This document shows, one piece after another, positions 5,069 through 28,326 of a DNA stretch of 64,000 nt; the first letter of the stretch is position 1, and each line of letters opens with the position of its first letter. The position numbers and the translations under genes were made by a program. Under the pieces are notes generated by a model that worked only from the letters and a program-made list of their open reading frames with translations, was not told the origin of the DNA and searched no databases. This DNA comes from Candidatus Thorarchaeota archaeon SMTZ1-45. GTDB taxonomy: Archaea > Asgardarchaeota > Thorarchaeia > Thorarchaeales > Thorarchaeaceae. The stretch covers positions 2-64,001 of the forward strand of contig LRSL01000118.1 of the NCBI GenBank assembly GCA_001563335.1, in the 5' to 3' direction.

Positions 5069-7441
5069 TTATTTCTTTCCCCCTCTCAAACCGGGGAACC
5101 AATACTGAGTACTCCTAGAATAACTGCGTTGTTCTTTTGCAACACCATTCTTAACAAGGAGTTCAAGCGCGTTCTTCACTCGTTCCTCAGTCCAACCCAG
5201 ACTTACAACAGCATCTTCTATGTTGAGAAGTCCATCTTTGCTTGCTGCAAGACTGAGTATCTCTTGTGGATCATTTGTGAGTGCGACAGGGACGAATTCC
5301 ACCAGTAGCGCGCCTCCCTCTATTTTAGAGAGACCCTGAATTAAGCCCTCTTTGGCCATGTCTTCTATAATTCGTTCAATTTCATTTGCATGAGTTCCCC
5401 ACCCAGCAATATCCAGTCGTACAAGGAGTTCTGAGAAAAGCATGATTCCACCAAACATTTTGGAATCTTCTGCCATCCTAAGGATGTCACGTCGAAGACC
5501 ATCAGTTCTATTATCTCTCTTCAGGAGTCTTCTGACCATTCCAGATTGCTTCTTTGCTTCAGCGATCCATGATTCAGGTTCATAGCCTAATTCAGTAAGG
5601 AGCTCGAAGAGCGCAGATCTATATGCTGGAATACTTAGTAAGGTGCTTCCTTGGGTTTCAAAGGCCTCCCATAAGCGCTCACGAATCATATCTAAGCGCC
5701 GAGATCTATCAACTAATTCATCTAGTCTAGCTGCTATTTGCTCTTCATGTGAAAGTGAATTGAGCATTATTGGTATCGCCACAGCACTTGTTGATTCAAT
5801 TGTAAATTCAATAGGTTTGTCAAAATATCTCGACGCACGAACAACACCTTCGTAGCTACTCATTGGTATGGAAACAACAATGATTCCTTTGTCATCAGAT
5901 TTTGCAGAAATTGCACCTAGTTCAAGCTCAGCGTTTTCGACCGGTCGTCCAGCTTCGTCTTGAATATGAAATCGTACACGACAAAGGGTTCCATCAACAA
6001 CAAGAGGAGTAACACGACGTTTCATGCGTGTCTTTATTTTTACTTCAGGAAAACCTGACAAGATGACTTGCAATTCTTCAATTAGTGGACGTTTCACAAG
6101 TCCATCACCCAAGAGTGATTCCGCACCCTCCAGAATTAGAGTCCTAGATTCTTTTACTGAGAGTAGATTGAAATTCTTAGAAGACTCTCGTATGAATTTC
6201 CTCAACGCAACATCATTATTTGCTCTTTCACTCAATAGTGATGTGATAGCATCTATAGCTCGAGAGGGGCTTGAGAACCCATCGACAAAATCACGTCTTC
6301 GACTTACTTTTTCACCATTAGAAACAAGTTGAGAGATTGGATAAACTTCAATATGGAGTTGCCCCTTTTTTGAAAAGCCAGCAAGGAAGAAAGGTAACAG
6401 AATTAGGGCGTCTTTGCCCCCATCGTTCACAGGTGATATAGGGACAGACATATCGATAATGGAGGAAAGTTGATCATTAAGTGTCATTTTGGCAGCCTGG
6501 AATTCTGCAACAAGATTATCTCTCTCTATGAGTAAGTTTCGTGAGTTTCCTTGGATATTAGAGAGTGTTTCATTTCTTCTGGCTTCATCACGTTCAAGAG
6601 CAGCTTTTCTTGCCAACAGTGTTGTCTTTATTTCTGCAAGTCGCTCCGGTTTTGTATCTGATGATGATGCTGAAATTTTGGTAAATTCTGACTCCAGAGT
6701 TTCGATTTGTTGATGTAATGAATCAATCCGCAAGTCCAATCTTGAAAGAATTGGAGCTGATTCAGCCTCACCTTTTTCTACTACTGACTCAACCTTTGCT
6801 GCTAGATTATCAATGAGAGAGGATACTGTTTTCTCAACTGAACTCAAGGTTGATGCGGTTTCTAGCAGGATATCGATTGATTTTTGAAATTCCTTCTGCT
6901 TCAGTAAGCCTGCAAGAAGTACTTCGAAGTCCTCAACTTGATTTCTAAGAGGCCTGTCGAGTATCTGTGCAATTCCTCGAGCCATCAATCCACTCATCAA
7001 GCCCAAGATTGTGAAACGTTCAGTTGTTCTTAGTGATGTAACTATTTCACAAGCATCCCTAACAGCTCCCAACAGTGTTTCAGCATCGATACTTGATTCA
7101 AGCTTCTCAACAATTGATGTAGTTGTGTAACTTCTTTGTTTTATAACAGACTCACTAGTGAGGCCTAGAAGTTCAACAAGAAAACTCCGATTGGGAAAGG
7201 GGGATTTAGCTATTTCCACAGGCAAGTAGCATTTGAGAATGAATTCAAGTTCGCGACCATCGCGTTGTTCTATTGCACGAAGAACCATGCCAGCTAAAAC
7301 ATAATCTTCTGGTATTGACTGTTCCATTGGTTGACCGCCTGCTAACTGGAGTCTCCTCGTAGCTGTTGAGGGTACAATGAGGTTCCAACGGTCAAGGTTC
7401 ATCGTGATTCCTATTGTTGAAATCATAGGAATGCTTTTCAT
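5069..7441 (-). CDS. Large coiled-coil protein with a C-terminal EAP30 (ESCRT-II Vps22/Vps36-like) tandem winged-helix domain
   Basis: 790 aa. The last ~220 aa align by eye to human SNF8/EAP30: GGIMLFSELL, LLVEFVPVAL, LGWTEERVKNALELLVKNGVA, and terminal YWFPGL versus SNF8 HYWLPALF. The centre is heptad-rich helical. The N-terminal ~560 aa are unassigned. Confidence 0.75.
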   Translation of the reverse strand: MKSIPMISTIGITMNLDRWNLIVPSTATRRLQLAGGQPMEQSIPEDYVLAGMVLRAIEQRDGRELEFILKCYLPVEIAKSPFPNRSFLVELLGLTSESVIKQRSYTTTSIVEKLESSIDAETLLGAVRDACEIVTSLRTTERFTILGLMSGLMARGIAQILDRPLRNQVEDFEVLLAGLLKQKEFQKSIDILLETASTLSSVEKTVSSLIDNLAAKVESVVEKGEAESAPILSRLDLRIDSLHQQIETLESEFTKISASSSDTKPERLAEIKTTLLARKAALERDEARRNETLSNIQGNSRNLLIERDNLVAEFQAAKMTLNDQLSSIIDMSVPISPVNDGGKDALILLPFFLAGFSKKGQLHIEVYPISQLVSNGEKVSRRRDFVDGFSSPSRAIDAITSLLSERANNDVALRKFIRESSKNFNLLSVKESRTLILEGAESLLGDGLVKRPLIEELQVILSGFPEVKIKTRMKRRVTPLVVDGTLCRVRFHIQDEAGRPVENAELELGAISAKSDDKGIIVVSIPMSSYEGVVRASRYFDKPIEFTIESTSAVAIPIMLNSLSHEEQIAARLDELVDRSRRLDMIRERLWEAFETQGSTLLSIPAYRSALFELLTELGYEPESWIAEAKKQSGMVRRLLKRDNRTDGLRRDILRMAEDSKMFGGIMLFSELLVRLDIAGWGTHANEIERIIEDMAKEGLIQGLSKIEGGALLVEFVPVALTNDPQEILSLAASKDGLLNIEDAVVSLGWTEERVKNALELLVKNGVAKEQRSYSRSTQYWFPGLRGGKK

Positions 7442-7940: not shown

Positions 7941-9086
7941 ATGTTAATACTACAACTCCATAGAGTGGGACGGCATATGCCAGAGGCAACATTTGTGGTT
8001 CATCTTGATGATTATCAAGGATTCCTAGTTAAGCAAAGATACCCCTCATCACTTACTCTCAATGAGAAAGTTTTGAATTTGATTTTCTATGAGCAACAGA
8101 AAGAGGATAAAGAGGAATTGAGTCTGGCGGAAATTGAAGGATTTAGAATAGCAATCTTCAGCGCACCAGAATATCCAAAATGGATGGTTTGCACTATCCT
8201 CGGTGCTGAGGAGGATTACAACCTAGTCGATGAAGGACTTGCCGGTTCAGGAAGGCTCATTCTTGCCTTAATGAATGAAGATGAGGAATCAGTGAATCTT
8301 GAGGAGATTGTTAAAGCTGGGAGTATCCTAGAAAAGACCAAGGAAGAGCAAAAACTTGCATCTATCTTTCTCACTCCATCGTCAGCGTTACTACTCGAAC
8401 GTATGCAATATGAAGGTGTTGAGAAAGCTGCTAAACTCTCAATTTGGCTAAAGAATCAGGTCCAAGATGAAGTAGACCTTCGTGAGGCAATGGCGCCTCT
8501 AATGAACACAGGCGTGGTTAAAGTTGAACTCGTCGGAAAAACATCAGAGATGGTCTTTCTTGTCAAAGACATCTTTGGCTACCGTGCTCCACCCGTTGAA
8601 TCTCTAAAGAGAGCTGCTCAAATAATACCAAGTATCGCAGAAAGATACAAAGAATATGTAACAGCATTCTTCTCACCACCCCCTCCAAACAAAGGATACA
8701 ATCCAACTTTGCCCATTAGTGATCCAAACTCACCCATTCTTGAAGATAGAGAGAAACTCTCTCGTCTTCTTGCTGATAGTTTGAACTACATGGTTCTTGA
8801 TTCATTGAGAGCTGAACCACTCTCTGCAGCAGAGGTGTCTTTGAAAACTGCACTTCCAGAATCCATAGTGAAGAAAGTACTTTGGGCACTGGAATCAGAG
8901 AAGGTAGTCGTCCATTTTGAGGATGAGGATGTATGGGCACTTTTAACGAATCCTCGGATTGAATCTTTTATTCCTGAATACGTCCTACCAATGATTAAGA
9001 AGAAGGTATCAGAGAAAGAAATAACACCACAAATTGCACGCAGACATCTTGAACTCTTGATTCAAAACTATGGTGAGCCGGAATGA
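7941..9086 (+). CDS. Hypothetical protein: N-terminal alpha/beta domain plus two winged-helix-like segments
   Basis: 381 aa. GAGG lies 12 nt upstream of the ATG at 7941; the alternative start is 7977. WH-like stretches are LREAMAPLMNTGVVKVELVGK and LSAAEVSLKTALPESIVKKVLWALESEKVVV. The stop overlaps the next start (ATGA at 9083). Confidence 0.7.
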   Translation: MLILQLHRVGRHMPEATFVVHLDDYQGFLVKQRYPSSLTLNEKVLNLIFYEQQKEDKEELSLAEIEGFRIAIFSAPEYPKWMVCTILGAEEDYNLVDEGLAGSGRLILALMNEDEESVNLEEIVKAGSILEKTKEEQKLASIFLTPSSALLLERMQYEGVEKAAKLSIWLKNQVQDEVDLREAMAPLMNTGVVKVELVGKTSEMVFLVKDIFGYRAPPVESLKRAAQIIPSIAERYKEYVTAFFSPPPPNKGYNPTLPISDPNSPILEDREKLSRLLADSLNYMVLDSLRAEPLSAAEVSLKTALPESIVKKVLWALESEKVVVHFEDEDVWALLTNPRIESFIPEYVLPMIKKKVSEKEITPQIARRHLELLIQNYGEPE

Positions 9087-9934
9087 TCAGAAGTGTCTAT
9101 GTACTTGGCGAGCAGGGAAATATGCTCTATTCCAAAGATTATGCTAAAAGTGAGTCTAAAGCAGAACTGGTTGAGTTTCTGGTCAATCTTACTCATTTCT
9201 TGAAGACTGTAGACCTTGAAGATAAGACAGAGTTCATGAATGTGGCTATTTCACGTATCTTCTTTGCACAGAGAGATAATTTCACGTTCATGTTTGTTGC
9301 TGACAAGGCAGATGATGCAACTCAAATTGAAGAAAAGATGGGGCAATTAGTTGATTCATTTATGCGTGATTTTGCAAACCTAGCTCATGCAAACCAACCA
9401 CTAGATGGTTTTGATGAGAAAGTTGATGAGATTGCTGTCACGATGGTAAAAGTCGCCATCTTGGGGTTTGCAGGTGTTGGAAAAACCACGACACTCCATC
9501 TTCTTAGAGGTGAAACCCTTCCTCTTGTCCATGATCCCACAATAGGTGTATCAATCAAAAAATTACCTGAAGAGGTAGAGAATGCCAACATAGTTCTTTG
9601 GGATCTAGCTGGGCAGTCAAGATTTAGCATCCTATGGGCGAAAATGATTGCTAATGCTCAGGTTGTAATCATAGTCACGGACAGTACCTTAGAGAATGTT
9701 TTGAGGAGCAAGAAGCTAGTAACTCTTGTTAAAGAAGAGGTTCCTGATGCAAAAGTTATAGGTATCGCCAACAAACAAGACCTTCCTACTGCTTTAACAC
9801 CAGAAAGAGTCGGTCAAATTCTTGGAATTCCAACTTACGAACTTGTGGCCATTGACATTTCATATAGAGATAGGCTTATTCAAATCATTCGAAGAGCCAT
9901 CCTTGAGGGGAAGGCTGAAACAAAAGCCGCTTGA
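9083..9934 (+). CDS. Longin-like domain fused to a Ras-superfamily small GTPase
   Basis: The N-terminus MIRSVYVLGEQGNMLYSKDY... resembles the start of AP sigma-adaptin/longin folds. The C-terminal half has G1 GFAGVGKTT, G2 PTIGV, G3 WDLAGQ and G4 NKQD. GGTGA lies upstream. Confidence 0.85.
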   Translation: MIRSVYVLGEQGNMLYSKDYAKSESKAELVEFLVNLTHFLKTVDLEDKTEFMNVAISRIFFAQRDNFTFMFVADKADDATQIEEKMGQLVDSFMRDFANLAHANQPLDGFDEKVDEIAVTMVKVAILGFAGVGKTTTLHLLRGETLPLVHDPTIGVSIKKLPEEVENANIVLWDLAGQSRFSILWAKMIANAQVVIIVTDSTLENVLRSKKLVTLVKEEVPDAKVIGIANKQDLPTALTPERVGQILGIPTYELVAIDISYRDRLIQIIRRAILEGKAETKAA

Positions 9935-11734: not shown

Positions 11735-12397
11735 TTGAACAAGGTCCAAGAGATCCCTATATTAATCGAGAATCTTGTTTCATTTGCATATCCTGAACTT
11801 CAACAATCGAGTATATCCATATCATGGGGAAAAACATCAAGTTACGCTCAGATTCAATGGAATCGCTCAAAGGATAATATTTCAATCAAGATTAGTAATG
11901 ATGTAAAAATCTGGCATGAGGCAGGGATAATTGGATTGATTTCACACGAACTCAGCCATCCAACACAAAAAGGAAGAGTTCTGAGCGAATTCAAAACCGA
12001 TAATGACGTAATATCTCGAGGTTTAGGACCGTACTTAGCTATCGAGAGATTGTTTGCTGGGAAGTATATTGACCATAGGATAATTAATGGGAGGGATAGA
12101 TATCTTGGATATAGATCAATCCGAAACCAACTTACAAATCTCGAAACTCAACAGCTAGATACACTTCTATCTAGAATTCAACTGGCACCAGCAAAACCTC
12201 ACATCCCAATTTGGCAAAGTCATGACACAGTGATAATTAATGATGAACACAGAAGCAATATTACTATCGAAGGTCATCAGTTCTTATTGCCAAATAACGT
12301 TCATGATCCAGATATCAAATTAGTAGAACGAAATAATATCACATTAATCTATGCTGACGATATTTTGGTAGGAGAGTACCCTGTCAAAGATGTCTGA
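11735..12397 (+). CDS. Hypothetical protein with an HExxH motif (putative Zn-metalloprotease-like)
   Basis: 220 aa. TTG start with GGAG 11 nt upstream. HELSHP is the only recognisable motif. Confidence 0.5.
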   Translation: MNKVQEIPILIENLVSFAYPELQQSSISISWGKTSSYAQIQWNRSKDNISIKISNDVKIWHEAGIIGLISHELSHPTQKGRVLSEFKTDNDVISRGLGPYLAIERLFAGKYIDHRIINGRDRYLGYRSIRNQLTNLETQQLDTLLSRIQLAPAKPHIPIWQSHDTVIINDEHRSNITIEGHQFLLPNNVHDPDIKLVERNNITLIYADDILVGEYPVKDV

Positions 12398-12413
12398 TTA
12401 CGTTGTCATGTAT

Positions 12414-13697
12414 TTAGAGGTCCTTCCTTTTTGAGATCTTTAGCTTTTGCTCCAGCATTACATTACTTTTTGGGGGAATATCTTCTTGAACAACACATCC
12501 TGCTGAAATTATACTGTCCTCTCCAATCCTTGTAGCAGGGTAAATCGATGCATTGACACCAATAACAACATTGTCACCCACAATTGCTCCAAACTTGCTA
12601 AGAGGGACTTGCACTTTCTTATCCTCTTGTGTAAGAAATAGTGGTTCACTCCCAGGGCGCCAGTTCCATAATTGAGCACCTGCTTCAATGCATGTGTCAG
12701 CTCCAACTATTGAGTCTGCGAGATATGTCATTCTACCAACATTGACCCTCTCAAAAACCATGCTGCTACGCATTTCAACTGCATAGCCAATTCGTACACT
12801 ATCACAAAGACTACTGTAATCTCGAATAAGCGAGTTGTTACCTATGTAGACATTCTTTCCTATGTATATTGGACCCCTTAGTGTTGTGTTTGGTCGGATG
12901 ATACTACCTTTATCTATAAAGACGGACCCTTCGATAACCACGCTTGAATGTACATCTGCAGATTCTGATATGAAACTGCCTTTGCCCTTGAGCATACGAT
13001 CCATGACTATCCGATTTGCATTTAGAATATCCCAAGGCCAAGTAAATTCAGCCCATTCTTTCTCCCAGACAGTGGCTGAAACTTGATTACCATCTTTTAT
13101 AAACTCCTCAAAAGCAAGTTCCATTGCACGATGCTTTTCGAGGAGCGGTAGCACATTAGTATCGAAAACAGAGACTCCCGCCACTGCATAGTTACTAACA
13201 TATCTCTCAGGACCGCCCTTCTCTACGAATTTTTCAACAATCCCATTAGGACCAATTTTTACAGTTCCAAATTGTTCAGGATTAGAAACAAGAGTCACTA
13301 GGAGGGTAACAGCGCTCCCCATAGTCTGGTGGTTGCTAAGTGTTCTTGTGACCATTTCAGGTTCTACCAATACATCGCCATTAACAAGCAGGAATTCTTC
13401 CTCGCCATTAAGCTCCTCTTTTGCGGTTAGAATTGCAGATTCTGCCCCTTCTTGTTTGTGCTGAATCATATAACGAATTCTAATTCCTTGTTCTCCACCC
13501 ATCTGGAAGTGATCGATTAATTCTTCACGTCCATGACCAACAACAATGATAATATCACGAATATCGTTTTCAACAAGACTATCGATTATGTATTGTAAAA
13601 CTGGATGTCCTGCAATCATCAACATAGACTTAGAGCGATTTGATGTGAGTGGTCTGAGTCGTTGACCTTCCCCAGCAGTTAGCACTAGTGCTTTCAT
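12414..13697 (-). CDS. Sugar-1-phosphate nucleotidyltransferase with a C-terminal left-handed beta-helix (GlmU/archaeal bifunctional type)
   Basis: N-terminal LTAGEGQRLRPLT nucleotidyltransferase signature. The C-terminal ~170 aa carry hexapeptide-like repeats ([LIV]G...). Confidence 0.85.
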   Translation of the reverse strand: MKALVLTAGEGQRLRPLTSNRSKSMLMIAGHPVLQYIIDSLVENDIRDIIIVVGHGREELIDHFQMGGEQGIRIRYMIQHKQEGAESAILTAKEELNGEEEFLLVNGDVLVEPEMVTRTLSNHQTMGSAVTLLVTLVSNPEQFGTVKIGPNGIVEKFVEKGGPERYVSNYAVAGVSVFDTNVLPLLEKHRAMELAFEEFIKDGNQVSATVWEKEWAEFTWPWDILNANRIVMDRMLKGKGSFISESADVHSSVVIEGSVFIDKGSIIRPNTTLRGPIYIGKNVYIGNNSLIRDYSSLCDSVRIGYAVEMRSSMVFERVNVGRMTYLADSIVGADTCIEAGAQLWNWRPGSEPLFLTQEDKKVQVPLSKFGAIVGDNVVIGVNASIYPATRIGEDSIISAGCVVQEDIPPKSNVMLEQKLKISKRKDL

Positions 13698-16949: not shown

Positions 16950-18434
16950 CTATGGATTGTAGGCGAATGGGTGCCTTGCTGATTCTTTTCGAGCAATTAT
17001 CTCATCTACTCCCTGACGACTCTCTATTGCCCTCCTGAGCGCATGTCTCACAGCAATGAAGTTGTTAATATGAACTCGTGTCTTGTTAACCGCACTTGGG
17101 TGTACAAAGACATTTGCAGCAATAACAAGGTCCCGAACAAGTTCCTCAGGGATTATATTGTCAGTGATTGTCCGGCGCACTGCATCAGCCACAGCCCTTT
17201 GTGCAACATCATAGACCATCTTCTTGTGATCTTCTGATGTGATTGTAACTGTGGGAGCAAAAACAGTAATCAACTCAAGGTCCTTAATGATATTCGATTG
17301 ATGCGTGTCCTCTGTCACTTTCCCTGCATTCCTAATTGCCACTCTCATGGGACCATCACGAATGCCCAATATTAGATCAACATGAGCAACTTCATTACCA
17401 CCACCAAATAACGCTTCTCCATGCATCAAGGTCAGATCTGGAATCACATCTGGCACCATTCCAACAGCTTTGGGGTAAGTTTCAGACTCAATTGAACGAT
17501 TACCCATCTTGAATGTGACAATACCACGTGGGATCATCTGAAGATCCTCAAGGCAAGTTCGAATCTCATCATGCATGTCATATCCAAGAATATCTCCAAT
17601 TAGGAGAGGCCGTCTAGCAAGTCCCACTGGCACACCCATCATATTCAAAGCCGCTTTTACTGCTAGTCCACCTCCATTGTTAACAAAAATACGTACAATC
17701 TTCTGAATGCTTCTTTGAATAATACGCGCTTCTTTCAGGTCTCCTGTGGCAAGTGCTGTTTGCATCCTAATATAGCGGTCAGGAAAAACGTTGGCACTCG
17801 CTAGAATTGCACCATTACAACCAGATGCAAGTGCAGGTAAAGCAACTTCATCATGACCCACCATCACTTGGAAGTTTTCTGGTTTTCGGACCAGAATTGT
17901 CGTCAGATTTACTAGGTCGCCACTAGAATCCTTCAAACCGATTATTCCATCAATATCTCGAAGACCATCAATAAGAGTCCAATGCATGGGAACGCCAGTC
18001 ACTTGGGGAATATTGTAAACAATGATTGGTATGTCACTATTATTAGCTATCTTTTCAAAATGTTCATAGATTTCTTTGTTTGATGGCTTCAGGAAGTAGG
18101 GAGAAACGATAAGCGCTGCAGCAGCTCCAAACTCAGCAGCTCTTCGAGTCAGTTTGATAGCATCATTTGTATACGCATGGCCGGTTCCAGCAAGCACTGG
18201 AACTCTTCCTTTTGCAGCTTTGCATGCTATACGTATTGCTTCCTCTTTCTCCTCAAATCTCATGCTTGTGAACTCCCCTGTAGTTCCACATGGCACGATG
18301 CCAGTCGCGCCACTCTTAATCGTGAAATCAATGAGATTGCGATACTGTTTTTCATTCACACCATTCTTATCAAAGGGTGTAACGAGCGCAGGGTAGACAC
18401 CTTTGAAACGATATTCAGCTGTCATTGGGATCAC
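16950..18434 (-). CDS. DapA-family class I aldolase fused to a C-terminal formaldehyde-activating-enzyme (Fae)-like domain
   Basis: The N-terminal ~300 aa carry GTTGEF, YNIP and IIGLKDSSG (Schiff-base Lys). The C-terminal ~170 aa carry GEALFGGGNEVAHVDLILGIRDGP ... IIPEE ... VFVHP ... ARHPFAYNP, matching Fae as I recall it. Confidence 0.85.
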   Translation of the reverse strand: MIPMTAEYRFKGVYPALVTPFDKNGVNEKQYRNLIDFTIKSGATGIVPCGTTGEFTSMRFEEKEEAIRIACKAAKGRVPVLAGTGHAYTNDAIKLTRRAAEFGAAAALIVSPYFLKPSNKEIYEHFEKIANNSDIPIIVYNIPQVTGVPMHWTLIDGLRDIDGIIGLKDSSGDLVNLTTILVRKPENFQVMVGHDEVALPALASGCNGAILASANVFPDRYIRMQTALATGDLKEARIIQRSIQKIVRIFVNNGGGLAVKAALNMMGVPVGLARRPLLIGDILGYDMHDEIRTCLEDLQMIPRGIVTFKMGNRSIESETYPKAVGMVPDVIPDLTLMHGEALFGGGNEVAHVDLILGIRDGPMRVAIRNAGKVTEDTHQSNIIKDLELITVFAPTVTITSEDHKKMVYDVAQRAVADAVRRTITDNIIPEELVRDLVIAANVFVHPSAVNKTRVHINNFIAVRHALRRAIESRQGVDEIIARKESARHPFAYNP

Positions 18435-20279: not shown

Positions 20280-22730
20280 CTATGCGATATCAGCTCTGCG
20301 AGCTGCATATGTTAGGGATTCGTTAAAGTATTTTCCAACAATTGCGCATATTGCAGGACCAACAACATAGTTGATTTCCCCAGGCATTAGCTCCTTCAGA
20401 TTTGTCTTTGAGGTCAGTTTGCCTTTTCTCTTGAGAATCCCTATCTCCCGATCAATGGTGGATTTTGCTTTATCCCAAGACATGGGCTCAACACCTCGAC
20501 CTGTACCTATCAAACCCTCTTTGATTTCAAATAGACTTCGCATAATGAAAATTGATAGATTATCCATATCAGAAGAGTCTTTCATGAAATTGACACCATG
20601 CTGTGAGCATTTTGCATTGCTTGGTTCAGATCCACAAGCAGAGCATATCTTACGTCCTCTGTTTGTTTTGATATAGTATGCCAAAAGATTAGCACATTTT
20701 GTAGTGTCATTTGGAGTCCATACAAGACCCTTCGCTCCCACTCGACTTATGGCTCGAAATACTGTGCGTGCTTTGTTGTGAAGGTACATCAAAACATCAA
20801 TGCCCTCTTTCCGCTCCTCAATTCTACGTTTTTCCTTCTGTTTGGCTTCGAAGGCAAACTCCTCCTTTGCGAGTTTCTCAAGCCGCTCTTGTTTCAAGAA
20901 ACGCTGCATGATATCATAGGCTATTGCATAGTTATCGAACTCCAAACTGGTCATATCTAACGATTTATCGACAATACCCTCAAAGACTGGACTGATGGAG
21001 GTTTCAAGGTCTTTAGCAGCAGCTATCATATCCTTCGTCGAAAATCGAGCGTGCATCCATGTGCAAATTGACTGTGCATCTAACTCAGGATAAACAATCT
21101 TCATCTCGTAAATTCTCATGGATGCAAGATCAATCAAGATTTCTTCTCTAAGGAATTGCAGGGTTGTATCAGTATCTTCGTAAATACTCTTTAAAAGTGC
21201 TTTAATTCGAAGAAGGTCTTGTTTAGATCGAATATAGGATTCAACGACTCGTGTTAGATTTGTAAGAATACCAATCGTGAAATGCCAAATGAAATCGAGT
21301 CTCAAACTTACAATTGTTTCATCTTCTGTTCTCTGTTGACTGAAATCACGAGCTGATGAAATACCAAGAGAACTCAGTGCACCACTTTTAACCTGCTCAC
21401 GTGTTTCTAGAAGCCTGATGACCTCTGCAGGAGGTGGAACTCGCATTTTATTATTGAGTGCTTCGAGTACTTCTATTTCTATACCGACTAATTTTGCACG
21501 ATCCTTGGTAAACATATCTATGCTGATTTTATCAAGTTCAGTTGCACGAAGTCCTTTTGATCTAAGCATGCCCTTAACTGGTCCATTAAGTGTATTTTCT
21601 ATCTTCTCGAGAGCCTTCAATGAGCGCTCAAGCATCTCAAGTTCTTCCTTACTAATAGCTGGTGCTGATGAATCTGAAGTGCTATCAGCAGTCAATGATT
21701 TTAATCCAGGACCGATTATTGATAAGTCGCTTATACCCTTCCTTCGAAGCTGTGCTTTAACATCATCAATATCTACATTGAGAAATTTCGAAATTGTATC
21801 AAGTACGGAATCCGAATCTATTGATAAGATTTCAGCAGCTTTGGTAGTCACAACCTGTCCTAGACGAGATTCATAATTTTCTAGCGTAGTTGGAATATCG
21901 AATTCTTTCTCGAGAACTTCGAGCAAATGTAATCTAATTTCATGAGCATTCCTAAGACCCTTGAGAGTATCAATAGGTTTGCAGAATCTCTTCGTTATTG
22001 TTGATGCAATCTCATCCCAACTCTTAATTGGAATGGTTGTATCAAAAATGTGGCCCTTAGAATATTCTATTCGTCCAAATATTTTCTCAAGACCCATTTT
22101 AAGAATGGTGGTTTCGGGAACCTCTGAAGGATGTTCCCGCAGCAATTCATCTCTTAGAGATAGCGCACTCTCCTTTAAACCAGAAGCTTTGACATATAGC
22201 TCCTGTCGCCAATCTTGACCCCAACCAGTGACCTCGAGTATCAAGTCAATATCATGATTAGAATTGTATTCAGAAGGGATTTTTTTTAAGGTTTCTTTGA
22301 GTAGATTGAGTGCCTTATCTTTACTATCGGAATTAGGATTTGCACCTCCCAGTTCGTCAACGAAACAAATTATCAACTCACTTACTAGCTTAGCAACATC
22401 AATCTCCTCACGCTGTTTACCCGAGAAGAATTGTCGGACTTCAAGCTCAAGCTGTCGTCGTTCCTCCGCCCCTAGTTCATCTTTCATGTCACTGCCCGCA
22501 CTAGGCACCTCCGATGGGGTCAGAAGGCGAATACCCTGATAGCTGTGGAGATAGAATGCAGCAAAGAAGGAAAAAACATCTTCAAGCGGTCGAGGTTCCT
22601 TGAGTAGTTCGTGAAATAATTGACGATCTCTGCTACTTCGCATATGTGAAGCCAGGGCTTCTCTCAGTAGTATCTCTTTGCCAGCCTCACTCATTTGACG
22701 TGTCTTTAATACCCAAGAACTTACCATCAT
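20280..22730 (-). CDS. Large orphan alpha-helical protein with a C-terminal Cys4/His zinc-ribbon-like motif
   Basis: ~816 aa. The ATG at 22730 lies 3 nt after the upstream stop and is preceded by GAGGTGA. CSACGSEPSNAKCSQHG lies near the C-terminus. No NTPase or other catalytic motif was found. Confidence 0.8.
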   Translation of the reverse strand: MMVSSWVLKTRQMSEAGKEILLREALASHMRSSRDRQLFHELLKEPRPLEDVFSFFAAFYLHSYQGIRLLTPSEVPSAGSDMKDELGAEERRQLELEVRQFFSGKQREEIDVAKLVSELIICFVDELGGANPNSDSKDKALNLLKETLKKIPSEYNSNHDIDLILEVTGWGQDWRQELYVKASGLKESALSLRDELLREHPSEVPETTILKMGLEKIFGRIEYSKGHIFDTTIPIKSWDEIASTITKRFCKPIDTLKGLRNAHEIRLHLLEVLEKEFDIPTTLENYESRLGQVVTTKAAEILSIDSDSVLDTISKFLNVDIDDVKAQLRRKGISDLSIIGPGLKSLTADSTSDSSAPAISKEELEMLERSLKALEKIENTLNGPVKGMLRSKGLRATELDKISIDMFTKDRAKLVGIEIEVLEALNNKMRVPPPAEVIRLLETREQVKSGALSSLGISSARDFSQQRTEDETIVSLRLDFIWHFTIGILTNLTRVVESYIRSKQDLLRIKALLKSIYEDTDTTLQFLREEILIDLASMRIYEMKIVYPELDAQSICTWMHARFSTKDMIAAAKDLETSISPVFEGIVDKSLDMTSLEFDNYAIAYDIMQRFLKQERLEKLAKEEFAFEAKQKEKRRIEERKEGIDVLMYLHNKARTVFRAISRVGAKGLVWTPNDTTKCANLLAYYIKTNRGRKICSACGSEPSNAKCSQHGVNFMKDSSDMDNLSIFIMRSLFEIKEGLIGTGRGVEPMSWDKAKSTIDREIGILKRKGKLTSKTNLKELMPGEINYVVGPAICAIVGKYFNESLTYAARRADIA

Positions 22731-22733
22731 CAA

Positions 22734-25370
22734 TCACCTCAAGAATGTGTTCCCGACTGAAACAGTCAACTCATCAGCCCTGCGTTCAAAGGTTACAAGA
22801 TAGAGTAAATCATCCACTTTAGGATCCCGCAAGTACATGCGAGTTATTCTTGGGAGTGATTTCCCAAGACCACGTACCTTGGAACCCATCAAATATTCAA
22901 TGAATTCATCACCGAGATCTAGTCCTATCATAGCGGCTGCTCCAATTCCTTCTGCTTGAAGCCGGAGAACGCGTTTCCCGAAAGTAGTCGCCATATCTTT
23001 TTCTCGCTCTTTCAAGTGGTCGAGTTTGCTTTGAAGTAAATCCCTTAACTCAACATAGTACTTGAGAGAGGGATCCGGTTCAGGCTTGGGAGGAATGGAT
23101 TTCTCTTCCTTCACAGGATATTGCGTTCGTATTTCATGCAACTCTGCATCAATCGGTAGTGGCTTTGTTGGTTCCATTGGGGGCGGTGCTAGTGTTTGAT
23201 CAGTTTCACCATGTGTGATAGATTCTGCATCTTGAATAGCTCGGTAGCGTTCCATCTGTGCCATATAGTCATTTAGGGCAAGCTCATACTCTCTCATCTG
23301 GTTTTCGAACTGTTGCGTCTTTTGATCAAGTAATTTCTCACGTTTTACATTATGTTCTCGTATTGCGACATTTTCTTGTTCGATAATATGACATGTTCTT
23401 TCCCATTCCTGTATTTCCGCTTGGTATTCTTGTTCTCTTTGATCAGCTTCGAGCTTTGCACGGTTCACCATTGCGCTAGGCGTGACTGTTTCACCAACTA
23501 TTTCGTGAATAGAATTCAGAAGTTTTAGGAGAGATTCGGATTTGGTCATTGAATCATCCAGAGTTGTCTTAAAGCTCTCAACCCATTCAATTGCTTCCTT
23601 TTTCCACTCATCAGCTCTTTCACCAGCTCCTTCCACGGCAGCTTCAAGCTCTTCAACAAGACTAGCTTGTTCAGTCAGCATCTTATCTATGATGCGCCGG
23701 ATCAAGGGTTTTGAAAGGAGCGTATCTGCAACATCAGGGATGATGTCTGATACAAGATCTTGAAACTCATTTAGGAGTTTCATAAGAGCTTCTCCATGCT
23801 CAGTAAGGTCTTCAGAATCAGGAACTGCGTATTTGATAGCAATCTCTCTTTTGGCAATCTCGGCTACATTCTCAAATCCGATAAGATTCCATATGTCAAT
23901 TTTCTTGAATGATTCTATCAATTGACGTGTGACTAAATCCATGAGTTGTTTGAAGTCTTCATACTTGGTTCCCTTGAAAGCTTCTTTTGAGAAAGCTGCA
24001 TTAAGCTGCGCTTGAATCTCAGCATAGAACAGGTCAAACAAAGTGAGATCAGTGGGCCCAATATCTTCTTGTAGAGTTTCTTTCTTGAATTCTTGGAGAG
24101 CTGTGAAGAACGCCTTCTTGGCTGCATTTGTCACTAGATACTGATTAAGTTCCTTGGAGAAATATTGTAGGACTCTCTTAGCATATGCAATAACATATCT
24201 CATTGTTCCTTTTAGTTCCCAAGCACGAATCTCTCTAGCCCCTCGAAATTCACGGCTGACTGAGTTCATGATCCCATCAATGATACAAATCGCAAGGTTG
24301 TTCTTTGTTCCTGAAGAAACATCACTATTTGTAGAAACTCCAGAGGTTAATGAACTCTTATGATCCTCAATAGTCAAAGTTTTTCCTGAACTAAGATGTT
24401 CTTCCACAATATGTTCTAAGGCATTGATAGAGTCTCCTAGAATTTTTACAAACTCACCAATGCGAGGTCTTAGCGTTTCTATTTCTGATAGAGAAACCTC
24501 TGATTTGCCAAGAAATTCTATTAATGCCTTTACAACGCCCCCAACTAATTCTGACTCCTCAACCGCATAAGCATAGTAGTTTATTTCATTCAAAAGAGAC
24601 TGACCGGTTTCTGGCACAACCTTTGTTAAAGCTTCAATAGCACTAGGTGTCAATACACGATGCTTGAAATGAGCAACTAGTCTATCGTCTGGTTCATTGG
24701 GAAGTTTAAACTCTAGACTCTTTCGACCTCGGATTTTCATTCCAGGAGGTAAAAGCGTAAAATCATCAACTACTTCCAGCTTTGCAACCAAGTCAACATC
24801 GACATGGTCAGGTTTGACTTGTAGTGAGTCCCAAGACCCTTGAAACCGCCGATCAAGCATGTCAACAAAGAGAACACTGTTTAGTCGGTCAGTAAATTTA
24901 GTAATTACTGAGATTCCTTCCAACTCGTAATTCAGTTCATTATTAATCACAGCACTCTCGACATCAGAAATCTTCTTAGAAACAGCCTTCATGTATTCAT
25001 TAATTTTGAATGGATCAACAACTCCTTTTTCCCAGCTTAACACACAGACATGAGAGCCAACGCCTCCTTCACTTCCACCAGCAACCACAAGTTGATCAGG
25101 TAACACATCAGAACCAGGAGTCCTATCGAGATCCCATTCGATTGAGAGTATCTCTAATCCTTCGGATGACATCAAGGTGTCTCTAATAGTGAAAACTAGT
25201 GGGACTATGTTCATCGAAACACTTGCAGAGTGTTGCTCCAACATACTTCCAGCACCAATGGCACTTCCAATGGAATATCCAAGCCCTGTTGAAGTCCCTA
25301 ATACAGACGCAGATGCCATTCGAATTGCTTCAACAGTACTTGGGGCTTGTACATCTCTAGGGTCCGACAT
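22734..25370 (-). CDS. Large orphan protein: beta-rich N-terminal region, long helical/coiled-coil region, Pro-rich linker, small C-terminal domain
   Basis: ~878 aa from the ATG at 25370 (AGGAG upstream; the tracked start at 25412 is TTG). Heptad-rich segment EADQREQEYQAEIQEWERT...; linker LAPPPMEPTKPLP...PPKPEPDP. No recognised motif. Confidence 0.8.
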   Translation of the reverse strand: MSDPRDVQAPSTVEAIRMASASVLGTSTGLGYSIGSAIGAGSMLEQHSASVSMNIVPLVFTIRDTLMSSEGLEILSIEWDLDRTPGSDVLPDQLVVAGGSEGGVGSHVCVLSWEKGVVDPFKINEYMKAVSKKISDVESAVINNELNYELEGISVITKFTDRLNSVLFVDMLDRRFQGSWDSLQVKPDHVDVDLVAKLEVVDDFTLLPPGMKIRGRKSLEFKLPNEPDDRLVAHFKHRVLTPSAIEALTKVVPETGQSLLNEINYYAYAVEESELVGGVVKALIEFLGKSEVSLSEIETLRPRIGEFVKILGDSINALEHIVEEHLSSGKTLTIEDHKSSLTSGVSTNSDVSSGTKNNLAICIIDGIMNSVSREFRGAREIRAWELKGTMRYVIAYAKRVLQYFSKELNQYLVTNAAKKAFFTALQEFKKETLQEDIGPTDLTLFDLFYAEIQAQLNAAFSKEAFKGTKYEDFKQLMDLVTRQLIESFKKIDIWNLIGFENVAEIAKREIAIKYAVPDSEDLTEHGEALMKLLNEFQDLVSDIIPDVADTLLSKPLIRRIIDKMLTEQASLVEELEAAVEGAGERADEWKKEAIEWVESFKTTLDDSMTKSESLLKLLNSIHEIVGETVTPSAMVNRAKLEADQREQEYQAEIQEWERTCHIIEQENVAIREHNVKREKLLDQKTQQFENQMREYELALNDYMAQMERYRAIQDAESITHGETDQTLAPPPMEPTKPLPIDAELHEIRTQYPVKEEKSIPPKPEPDPSLKYYVELRDLLQSKLDHLKEREKDMATTFGKRVLRLQAEGIGAAAMIGLDLGDEFIEYLMGSKVRGLGKSLPRITRMYLRDPKVDDLLYLVTFERRADELTVSVGNTFLR

Positions 25371-25451
25371 GTGTAGACACTCCTGAACGAAAGCGAAAGC
25401 TGTAAGATACAAAGAATCAATATCGCAATCTTTTGAATATAGCTCGGTCAG

Positions 25452-26402
25452 CTATCCGACTCTCGTCCATATTCCATTTCCGAGCTCTCGTACTAATCCG
25501 GCTTCCTTCAAACCAATAAGAGTGACATGCAGAGTTGTTGTAAGTAGTGCCTCATAGCTCTGTGGAATAGGAACACTTCGAGCTTGTTTAATGTCAAATA
25601 CTAATTGCTCGATATCAGCATCACCTCGAGCACTCAACAATGTGAGCAGTGTGTCCTGTAGATGTACTATTCCATCCTTCACTTCTTGAAATTGAAGTTG
25701 AGCATCTGCAAAGATATGGGGCGAATCATGAGCAGGAAGCACGTGGTCCGCACCAAGCTTTGACATGGTTTCAATAGCTGTCAATTTAGCAACAATACTC
25801 CCAGTGTTATCAACGTAGAACTTACGAGGATCATTTGGAAAATTGTTCAACTCATCGCCTGAGAACAGTGCTTTTCGTTTGATATCAAAGAAGACGCAAT
25901 GCCCTGCAGAATGCCCTCCTGTATGAATCACTTTGAGAGTCGTTTCACCAACAGAGATGTTTTGGCCATTTACGATTAGCTCATCAGCCTCCATTCCTCG
26001 ATAATTGACACGGAGAGGGCCTTTATCGAATTTCATTGAGAATCGTTCAGCTCGGTCCATCATAAGTCGCTCATTCAAGAAGATCGAGGGAGTTTGAAGA
26101 AGTTCTGCATCATCCTTGTGAATCATTACTGGTGCACCTGTTGATTTCTTCAGGCGACTTGCTCCAGCTGCATGGTCGGGATGACCATGCGTACAGATGA
26201 TACCGAGAAGATCACTTTTTGGATTAAGACCTATATTCTTTATCGATCTCTCGAGTCGATCTCCTGGATCACCAGCAGTTCCAGGGTCTATAACAAGAAC
26301 TTCGTTCTCATCTATGAGCAGGTAGCTTGCAATGAAACCAAACTCACTTGCGAATTTTCCTCGCACAACTTGAATTCCAGGGATAATCTCAGCAGATGCC
26401 AT
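25452..26402 (-). CDS. MBL-fold metallo-hydrolase
   Basis: THGHPDH (the HxHxDH motif) plus downstream His/Asp ligands (HTGGHSAGH, SGD). Confidence 0.85.
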   Translation of the reverse strand: MASAEIIPGIQVVRGKFASEFGFIASYLLIDENEVLVIDPGTAGDPGDRLERSIKNIGLNPKSDLLGIICTHGHPDHAAGASRLKKSTGAPVMIHKDDAELLQTPSIFLNERLMMDRAERFSMKFDKGPLRVNYRGMEADELIVNGQNISVGETTLKVIHTGGHSAGHCVFFDIKRKALFSGDELNNFPNDPRKFYVDNTGSIVAKLTAIETMSKLGADHVLPAHDSPHIFADAQLQFQEVKDGIVHLQDTLLTLLSARGDADIEQLVFDIKQARSVPIPQSYEALLTTTLHVTLIGLKEAGLVRELGNGIWTRVG

Positions 26403-27351: not shown

Positions 27352-28326
27352 ATGGTGTTAATTGCAGTGTCATCACTAGTTTACATCCCAATTGAAAATG
27401 AACGCGTCCTTAGTCAACATCAGGAGTATATTCTGACAAATTACAGATGGATACAATTCGATAGAGGATCGCGAACAAGTGCTAGTTTACCCTTACACAT
27501 CATTAAGGAGTATAAGTTGACTACAAACTCTGCTATGTGCAAGGTTGTCAATGGAATTGTAAATTTCGTAGGAGCAATGCCAAGAAGAGAAGAATTGCGA
27601 GCTGCACTTGGACTTCGTGAGTTCGATAATCTCAGAGTTGGGGGACAGAGGAAGATTTGTGAAGTGAGTGGAGTGCCATTTGTACATCCAGACCATCCAT
27701 ATAATAGATGGATTTCAATTGGATTCCATAGACCATTTTCAAGACATTTCTATCAGACATTTGCATGGTTAAAAGGCGAGGAGGTCTTCACATATCATCC
27801 TGGAAGTTTCATACTTACAAACTATCGGTTGTATCAGTTTGATGCAGGTCCTAAGAAGATGTACATTTTCCCACTTCATATGGTTGAAACATTCGAAGCA
27901 AGAGGTAATGAACTCAAACTAAAAGCGACAACTGGAAAGTTCAAAATCAAAGGAAGAGTACCGCGACAGGACCATCTTTTGAGTGTGTGGCAGACTCGCG
28001 CATGGAGCCATATTTCGAAAGAACATCTAGACTGGTTAGTTCGGCCTTTCAGCTATATTGCACCTCATCACCCATTGTCACAATATTATGTTAGTGACAG
28101 TGCAACTGTCACACCAACTCCGGTTGCTCAAGAAACAACTCAGGAAATGCAGGTAACTGCAGGAAGTGCTGGTGCAGGTACAGTCTTCGTCAAACCAGTC
28201 ATAAAGGACAGATGCACTAATTGCTCAGCGCCCATGTCTTGGGAACAGATTGATTGGACAGGTCCAGATCAATATGCATGTCCTGCATGTGGTCATACTC
28301 ATAGAGTGGACTATGTTAGAATGTAA
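27352..28326 (+). CDS. Tandem PH/GRAM-like repeat protein with a C-terminal zinc ribbon
   Basis: Internal duplication: ILTNYRWIQFD..(L)PLHIIKEY and ILTNYRLYQFD..(F)PLHMVETF. The C-terminus reads CTNCSAP...CPACGHTH. Confidence 0.7.
   Translation: MVLIAVSSLVYIPIENERVLSQHQEYILTNYRWIQFDRGSRTSASLPLHIIKEYKLTTNSAMCKVVNGIVNFVGAMPRREELRAALGLREFDNLRVGGQRKICEVSGVPFVHPDHPYNRWISIGFHRPFSRHFYQTFAWLKGEEVFTYHPGSFILTNYRLYQFDAGPKKMYIFPLHMVETFEARGNELKLKATTGKFKIKGRVPRQDHLLSVWQTRAWSHISKEHLDWLVRPFSYIAPHHPLSQYYVSDSATVTPTPVAQETTQEMQVTAGSAGAGTVFVKPVIKDRCTNCSAPMSWEQIDWTGPDQYACPACGHTHRVDYVRM

Follow-up and report, generated by a model that had tools for sequence, protein, structure and literature searches.

A conserved, coupled gene pair of Asgard archaea that may encode a two-subunit cytoplasmic scaffold or adaptor

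Here, we describe two adjacent genes, ORF1 and ORF2 (open reading frames 1 and 2), in a 64,000-nucleotide (nt) stretch of DNA from Candidatus (Ca.) Thorarchaeota archaeon SMTZ1-45 (referred to as the window, i.e., the whole stretch analyzed), and we show that they form a conserved unit that is co-inherited and coupled across Thorarchaeota, Jordarchaeales and Loki-type Asgard archaea. We also show that neither protein matches a known family or a solved fold and that neither contains a recognizable catalytic motif. The pair may specify an Asgard-specific, soluble, cytoplasmic and obligate complex of two subunits that serves as a non-enzymatic scaffold or adaptor, a reading that we regard as an even call. 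An earlier note on this DNA, made from the sequence alone, had described two orphan giant proteins downstream of a metallo-beta-lactamase-fold (MBL-fold) hydrolase gene and had proposed them as a structural or scaffolding two-component system. This proposal remains the most economical reading; the description as orphans, the link to the hydrolase and the role of a zinc motif as a core feature did not hold up.

Results

Evidence for a unit comes from a survey of 87 loci using hidden Markov models (HMMs) for ORF1, ORF2 and Roadblock. In 85 of these loci, the gene directly upstream of the ORF2 homologue, on the same strand, is an ORF1 homologue; the junction gaps range from −44 to +44 nt, a 19-nt overlap being the commonest arrangement. 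One of the two exceptions is at a contig end, and in the other a divergent coiled-coil gene takes the place of ORF1. The upstream genes were identified as ORF1 homologues by BLASTP and hhalign; for the Jordarchaeales protein, the alignment spans 792 columns at a probability of 99.7%, and the proteins of Loki-type genomes have at least the N-terminal 235 residues in common with ORF1. Co-occurrence of the two genes had been proposed as a check in the earlier note, and these counts bear it out for the Thorarchaeota, Jordarchaeales and Loki-type lineages. That ORF1 and ORF2 could be paralogues of each other was rejected (hhalign probability 0.1%).

In the window, the two genes stand head-to-tail on the minus strand at the positions and lengths first given for them (Table 1). 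The ATG of ORF1 at 25370 is favored over an upstream TTG at 25412 by the N-termini of the homologues. ORF1 stops with TGA at 22736-22734, and ORF2 starts with ATG at 22730. The junction reads TTC TTG AGG TGA ttg ATG ATG, in which the Shine-Dalgarno-like GAGGTGA (22740-22734) overlaps the ORF1 stop codon and ends 3 nt ahead of the ORF2 start, confirming the earlier description of this junction. The MBL gene, said to end 40 to 80 nt before the pair, has its TAG stop codon 81 nt ahead of the ORF1 ATG and 39 nt ahead of the alternative TTG. The GC content is 0.40 to 0.43 across the pair and equals that of the flanks. The predicted isoelectric points (pI) are 4.9 (ORF1) and 6.1 (ORF2), and neither protein contains a transmembrane segment (maximum Kyte-Doolittle score in a 19-residue window, 1.15 for ORF1 and 1.36 for ORF2). 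At 878 and 816 amino acids (aa), the proteins are not giant.

Nor are they orphans. We found 158 homologues of ORF1 and 173 of ORF2 (E ≤ 1e-3), all full length and all annotated as hypothetical, nearly all of them from Thorarchaeota metagenome-assembled genomes (MAGs), in which the two genes have consecutive locus tags. Because both proteins align end-to-end with more than 100 homologues, with a mean column identity of 61% for ORF1 (111 sequences) and 71% for ORF2 (108 sequences), the alignments identify ORF1 and ORF2 as genuine genes under purifying selection rather than chance ORFs. When 1.84 billion representative proteins were searched exhaustively with the ORF2 profile (HMMER), only 50 clusters were recovered, among them distant full-length relatives with 15 to 25% identity. 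The full-length distant clusters bearing names are from Jordarchaeales and Lokiarchaeota CR_4, and all source-named clusters are Asgard except one that is partial and labeled Bathyarchaeota (P0288). A Loki-type ORF2 profile, scanned against one genome per GTDB species, detected relatives in 123 genomes, which include those of the cultured Ca. Lokiarchaeum ossiferum Loki-B35 and Ca. Harpocratesius repetitus as well as genomes labeled Hermod-, Hod-, Odin-, Thor- and Helarchaeota, the lineage labels of MAGs being the submitters' own. The L. ossiferum homologues, NEF87_002840 and NEF87_002841, are both annotated as hypothetical protein. When a diverse ORF1 profile was used in a large homology search, the top 120 matches listed were solely Thorarchaeota hypothetical proteins. 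No mention of the locus tags or accessions of the Thorarchaeota AB_25, Lokiarchaeota CR_4 and L. ossiferum homologues was found in the literature or its supplements. Thus, a strain-specific and possibly degenerate insertion, the other outcome considered in the earlier note, does not describe a pair that is conserved across several Asgard classes. One MAG (JBHLLE01) contains two ORF1-ORF2 loci (L035 and L070), whose ORF2 proteins are 61 to 65% identical and differ by a deletion of ~55 aa; these loci could be paralogous pairs or reflect strain mixing.

Searches of Pfam, NCBIfam, PADLOC and PHROGs with the full proteins and six excised regions returned no significant family; the PHROGs matches were solely to families of unknown function at E 0.006 or weaker, two of them inside the helical stalk region of ORF1. 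PDB sequence-profile searches with alignments of ORF1 (A1), ORF2 (A2), a diverse, mixed set (A3) and the ORF1 N-domain (A7) yielded only a coiled-coil-type match to streptococcal antigen I/II (AgI/II) and noise. Whole-chain Foldseek searches of the PDB with both models and of BFVD with ORF1 gave nothing at E ≤ 0.001, and the best TM-scores were near 0.1. When 17 diverse ORF1 N-domains were searched individually against Pfam, no recurrent family emerged. Neither protein matches an NTPase family with Walker A (GxxxxGK[ST]) or Walker B motifs, and a Gly-rich strand-loop-helix in ORF1 (residues 31-41) has no Lys or Ser/Thr that is conserved across lineages. The absence of P-loop, nuclease, protease, repeat and transmembrane signatures that was noted from the sequence is therefore upheld by family scans and hydropathy, and the absence of an assignable function by sensitive profile and structure searches.

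ORF1 was modeled by AlphaFold2 (AF2) with a pLDDT of 86.9 and a pTM of 0.79. The N-domain, the best-conserved part of ORF1 within Thorarchaeota, has the order alpha-beta-beta-alpha-beta-beta-beta-alpha-alpha (DSSP, residues 12-172); the N-terminal ~250 aa, previously called beta-rich, are thus mixed alpha/beta in the model. G35, E78, L81, P91 and L111 of this domain are invariant in Thorarchaeota, Jordarchaeales and Loki-type homologues, and the C-terminal motif LPR.TR.YLR...L.YLVTYE...L.VS.G..FLR is recognizable in all of these lineages. Between the two domains, a helical body is followed by a predicted stalk, which consists of an 88-residue helix with periodic Tyr/Trp/Asn (residues 631-718), a Pro-rich return segment and a 48-residue helix (767-814). 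Residues 719-726 of the Pro-rich segment are modeled with low confidence, and residues ~731-766 without regular secondary structure at a pLDDT of 81-87; because most of the segment is modeled at that level, the segment may have an ordered structure and not be a flexible linker. Residues 639-737 align to the AgI/II A3 repeat (3iox_A) at E 2.7e-4, a borderline match in a compositionally biased helix. In AgI/II, an alpha-helix is wrapped by a polyproline-II (PPII) strand. In ORF1, PPII geometry would give ~40 Pro-rich residues a span of ~124 Å, against ~132 Å for the 88-residue helix, and because these lengths nearly agree, Thorarchaeota ORF1 may, by analogy, form a rigid alpha-helix/polyproline-II hybrid stalk of ~13 nm. 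Loki-type ORF1 lacks Thorarchaeota residues ~656-674, 693-745, 755-774 and 807-820, i.e., the greater part of both the long helix and the Pro-rich segment. The coiled coil, Pro-rich linker and small C-terminal domain read from the sequence thus have counterparts in the model, except that the linker may be ordered and that the coiled coil does not define the family. As judged from the homologues, the predicted helix and Pro-rich stalk is a lineage-specific addition to a core of ORF1 N-domain, helical bodies and ORF1 C-domain.

The ORF2 model (pLDDT 84.9, pTM 0.69) is all-helical, in agreement with the earlier note, apart from a tiny beta zinc knuckle at residues 694-718. The late motif in this region exists; however, its spacing is CxxC-x8-CxxH (CSACGSEPSNAKCSQH) and not CxxC-x9-CxxH as first stated. 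The putative zinc ligands C696, C699, C708 and H711 are invariant in the 108 Thorarchaeota ORF2 sequences. In the wider set of loci, the CxxC...CxxH pattern is kept in just eight of 86 full-length ORF2 homologues, is gone from most Loki-type proteins, and the segment is cleanly deleted in three distant members. The predicted zinc knuckle is thus, on this distribution, a lineage-specific addition and not a core feature.

ORF2 also contains a helical module of ~93 aa set between linkers that are modeled with low confidence (residues 346-360 and 450-460). In the search of representative proteins, this module proved homologous to the extreme C-terminal cytoplasmic tails of three Thorarchaeota membrane proteins (P0278, P0284 and P0286). 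Comparison of module and tail by hhalign gave a probability of 98% (E 8e-14, 41% identity) for one of the proteins and of 95% for a second. The tail-bearing proteins consist of a signal peptide, DUF7948, an SBBP beta-propeller, TSP3 repeats and a single transmembrane helix, followed by the tail. Most simply, a tethered module that is common to ORF2 and to receptor tails would be a docking element. In two loci (L090, 8001-13104; L091, 8001-13048), DUF7948/SBBP proteins are encoded by pairs of tandem genes with SBP_bac_5 solute-binding-protein genes at their flanks, and only the first protein of each pair has the ORF2-like cytoplasmic tail.

The MBL gene adjoins the pair in five of five Thorarchaeota loci examined, down to ~45% ORF1 identity, and does so within a collinear block of ~12 genes comprising aldehyde:ferredoxin oxidoreductase (AOR), a 317-aa gene, DUF123, MBL, ORF1, ORF2, (CutA) and two DHDPS/formaldehyde-activating-enzyme (Fae) genes. 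No MBL gene is adjacent to the pair in the four Jordarchaeales or Loki-type loci for which called genes were listed. Thus, among these loci, the adjacency described in the earlier note was seen only in Thorarchaeota, and the MBL gene is an upstream neighbor and not part of the conserved module. Immediately past the MBL stop codon, a 17-nt motif (GAGCTAnATTCAAAAGA; 25429-25445) is conserved in all five Thorarchaeota loci, and its core is invariant although the ORF1 proteins of these loci are only 45 to 57% identical. This conservation suggests that the motif is a candidate promoter or operator of the ORF1-ORF2 unit, separate from that of the MBL gene.

Table 1. Positions and sequence or model basis of the pair, its parts and its upstream neighbor in the window.
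Feature	Position	Strand	Description and basis
MBL-fold hydrolase gene	25452..26402	-	Pfam Lactamase_B, E 1e-26
Conserved intergenic motif GAGCTATATTCAAAAGA	25429..25445	-	59 nt upstream of ORF1 ATG; five-locus Thorarchaeota alignment
ORF1	22734..25370	-	878 aa from ATG; ORF list, full-length alignment, AF2 model
ORF1 layout			N-terminal alpha/beta domain, beta-hairpin, helical body, 88-residue helix, Pro-rich segment, 48-residue helix, C-terminal alpha/beta domain
ORF1 N-terminal alpha/beta domain	24837..25346	-	Residues 9-178; DSSP of model
ORF1 long beta-hairpin			Residues 191-221; AF2 model
ORF1 helical body			Residues 228-630; AF2 model
ORF1 predicted stalk	22929..23480	-	Residues 631-814; model secondary structure
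ORF1 Pro-rich segment	23073-23216	-	Residues 719-766; translation
ORF1 C-terminal small alpha/beta domain	22737..22928	-	Residues 815-878; beta-alpha-beta-beta-beta at 816-874 in the model
Coupling junction	22728..22740	-	GAGGTGA, ttg, ORF2 ATG; read from sequence
ORF2	20280..22730	-	816 aa, all-helical plus small zinc knuckle; ORF list, alignment, AF2 model
ORF2 internal helical module	21381..21659	-	Residues 358-450, ~93 aa; hhalign, module HMM, translation
ORF2 predicted zinc knuckle CSACGSEPSNAKCSQH	20598..20645	-	C696, C699, C708, H711; translation

Outside Thorarchaeota, other genes accompany the pair. In 58 of the 74 loci with enough sequence, including most Loki-type loci, ORF1 has a divergently oriented Robl_LC7 gene <1 kb upstream; of 11 diverse informative loci, five have this neighbor. 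In loci L013 to L087, in which this gene lies ~0.4 to 0.8 kb upstream of the ORF1 homologue, the Robl_LC7 ORF, as called in this analysis, is only 68-99 aa long in many loci and 128-137 aa in others; the short ORFs could result from different starts or a frameshift or could be a truly shorter form. Loki-type loci also have a 243-aa gene (75 loci) and PALP (52 loci) as neighbors. The 243-aa protein has a weak PD-(D/E)XK-like match below the Pfam threshold, and the DUF123 neighbor in Thorarchaeota has a weak GIY-YIG-type Pfam match (E 0.14). In one Jordarchaeales locus (L005), the gene directly downstream of the pair (12388-13584) specifies a HEAT-repeat protein of 398 aa, which has Adaptin_N, Cnd1, PDS5-type and cohesin-HEAT matches. 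In L004 and L006, though not in most loci, the pair is likewise followed by alpha-solenoid-looking genes. A downstream HEAT or alpha-solenoid third subunit was rejected as a general feature, given that a same-strand ORF of at least 100 aa starts within 300 nt downstream in only six of the 72 loci with enough downstream sequence.

Several other genes in the window are also of interest. Two tandem genes for DHDPS-like/Fae fusion proteins with a 4-nt overlap (16950-18434 and 18431-c.19830, minus strand) are conserved on the downstream side of the pair throughout the Thorarchaeota loci examined; the 580-aa ORF given for this region in the ORF list extends too far in the 5' direction. A 324-aa protein without a known family (27352-28326, plus strand) has a C-terminal zinc ribbon, and syntenic genes of 317-319 aa adjoin the AOR gene in every Thorarchaeota locus examined. 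An Arf-family small GTPase with an N-terminal extension of ~120 aa (9083-9934, plus strand; Pfam Arf, E 1e-19) is preceded, with a 4-nt overlap, by a 381-aa ORF without a family match (7941-9086, plus strand), possibly as a GTPase-partner pair. Finally, a 790-aa protein (5069-7441, minus strand) has, in its C-terminal 165 residues, a weak similarity to EAP30/Vps36 (ESCRT-II-like) that falls short of the Pfam cut-off (E 3e-4).

Discussion

The scaffold or adaptor reading can be put as a model. ORF1 and ORF2 would be made in fixed proportion through translational coupling. The N- and C-terminal alpha/beta domains and the helical core of ORF1 would form a body from which, in Thorarchaeota, the ~13-nm stalk of helix and Pro-rich segment would also project. 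ORF2 would be the helical partner, with its flexibly tethered 93-residue module as the docking element. Because Thorarchaeota surface receptors carry this module in their cytoplasmic tails, the tails of these beta-propeller proteins probably engage the complex, or a partner of the module, on the inner side of the membrane. The complex may connect to roadblock-type small-GTPase signaling. A bolder version, in which the pair is the core of an Asgard-wide membrane-proximal adaptor that links receptor tails, via the ORF2-type module, to roadblock/small-GTPase signaling or the cytoskeleton, is a speculation that we consider rather unlikely.

Several observations weigh against the model. The homology of the module to receptor tails was seen in Thorarchaeota only, on three receptor clusters only, and the Thorarchaeota-derived module HMM matches Jordarchaeales ORF2 (E 6e-10) but not Loki-type ORF2. 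For these reasons, the receptor link may have arisen by lineage-specific domain shuffling. Moreover, a new kind of enzyme would be compatible with the lack of known catalytic motifs, and ORF2 does have invariant charged residues (E15, E97, E109, E206, R494, E497, K514, E529, R610 and D675). A known fold might also be found by a search at the level of domains or of the AlphaFold-DB, the Foldseek searches having covered whole chains against the PDB and BFVD.

The main rival to the scaffold or adaptor reading, possible but doubtful, holds that the pair is a platform of the longin/roadblock type. Such a platform would control a small GTPase as its guanine nucleotide exchange factor, GTPase-activating protein or anchor, and the alpha/beta domains of ORF1 would pair with a free Roadblock/LC7 protein. 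The order of strands and helices in the ORF1 N-domain is that of roadblock and longin sandwiches, the C-domain has beta-alpha-beta-beta-beta after a long helix, and Foldseek finds weak matches to small alpha/beta sandwiches (5l10, probability 0.44; the 105-aa axonemal chain 8glv_AK, 0.18). The frequent Robl_LC7 neighbor fits such a platform; Asgard genomes are rich in small GTPases, and the Arf-like gene is 11 kb from the pair in the window. However, full proteins, excised domains and, at E ≤ 10, the 17 diverse N-domains gave no Pfam Robl_LC7 or Longin match, and a relationship of the ORF1 domains to roadblock proteins was rejected when hhalign comparison of N-, middle and C-domain profiles with three and then 20 genuine neighboring Robl_LC7 proteins gave probabilities of <1%. 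The Robl_LC7 neighbor is also missing in Thorarchaeota and L. ossiferum, and because unrelated Loki-type neighbors, the 243-aa gene and PALP, are equally conserved, its linkage may be plain synteny.

Less probable still, and in our judgment quite unlikely, is a complex associated with nucleic acids or chromosomes in which an SMC-like ORF1 and a zinc-knuckle ORF2 act with HEAT and nuclease-like partners. Such a complex would account for the globular ends of ORF1 separated by long helices, for the CxxC-x8-CxxH motif of ORF2, for the Jordarchaeales HEAT-repeat gene and for the DUF123 and PD-(D/E)XK-like neighbors. Yet neither protein has a Walker A/B or other ATPase signature, the long helices are deleted in Loki-type ORF1, most homologues lack the zinc knuckle, the HEAT gene is found in few loci only, both proteins are acidic to neutral, and the PD-(D/E)XK match is subthreshold. 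That the pair and the MBL-fold hydrolase work as one operon, e.g., with the pair as a scaffold for the enzyme, is suggested by their common strand and short gap, an arrangement kept in all five Thorarchaeota loci; we nevertheless give this little credence. The whole block from AOR to DHDPS/Fae is collinear in Thorarchaeota, so the adjacency has no special weight, and it is not found in the listed Jordarchaeales and Loki-type loci. The conserved intergenic motif together with ORF1's own GGAG, moreover, suggests a separate promoter and ribosome-binding site. Large unannotated genes next to MBL and DUF123 genes could also point to a mobile element, virus or defense island; this explanation is effectively refuted by the GC content shared with the flanks, by the lack of a PADLOC match and of a meaningful PHROGs match, and by a stable chromosomal position among housekeeping genes across genomes. 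A viral origin specifically was rejected, as no relative of the pair was found on IMG/VR viral contigs.

Most attention has so far gone to Asgard proteins that resemble eukaryotic ones, and this pair is different. It amounts to ~1,700 residues in total, forms a coupled operon in several Asgard classes and yields confident models that no library recognizes. Because it is conserved and yet escapes family and fold libraries, the pair marks organism-specific cell biology that homology-driven surveys have missed. The Asgard-wide adaptor, if real, would stand as the prokaryotic equivalent of the receptor-adaptor or GTPase-platform machinery of eukaryotes and would consist of folds that solved structures do not yet include. 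The homologues NEF87_002840 and NEF87_002841 make the function directly testable in the cultured Ca. Lokiarchaeum ossiferum, and the module common to surface-receptor tails provides a concrete first interaction candidate.

Among known systems, Ragulator-LAMTOR, MglB, Mon1-Ccz1, GATOR1 Nprl2/3 and FLCN-FNIP are likewise multi-subunit, cytoplasmic and non-enzymatic in appearance and contain small alpha/beta sandwich domains, and the helix/strand order of the ORF1 N-domain and the frequent Robl_LC7 gene of Loki-type loci recall these longin/roadblock platforms. By contrast, ORF1 and ORF2 resemble neither Robl nor longin proteins in sequence or profile and have no significant Foldseek match to the solved complexes, and most of both proteins is helical without a counterpart there. 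With SMC/Rad50 proteins, ORF1 has in common the globular N- and C-terminal domains joined by long fold-back helices. It differs in that ATPase motifs are lacking, Loki-type homologues dispense with the helices, which are short (88 and 48 residues), and the zinc motif is in the other subunit, ORF2, and not at a coiled-coil apex. The resemblance of ORF1 to AgI/II (PDB 3IOX) lies in the alignment to the A3 repeat, with periodic Tyr/Asn and a Pro-rich segment next to it; however, AgI/II is a secreted, LPXTG-anchored bacterial adhesin, whereas ORF1 is cytoplasmic and the region is absent from its Loki-type homologues. This likeness probably reflects an analogous structural solution and not common ancestry. 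ORF2, as a stack of helical bundles of ~800 aa, resembles CATCHR/MUN rods and adaptors of the alpha-catenin/vinculin/talin type. Its weak Foldseek matches to MUN (6a30, 7t7c), M-Sec (5b86) and alpha-catenin (4igg) are at the level of generic helical proteins (probability ≤0.10, TM-score ≤0.12; best MUN/M-Sec matches in the PDB at E 0.6-1.1 and probability 0.04-0.10, not significant) and are not accompanied by sequence similarity. A further parallel is with adaptors of receptor tails: the ORF2 module, which recurs in the cytoplasmic tails of receptors, suggests a membrane-proximal adaptor logic.

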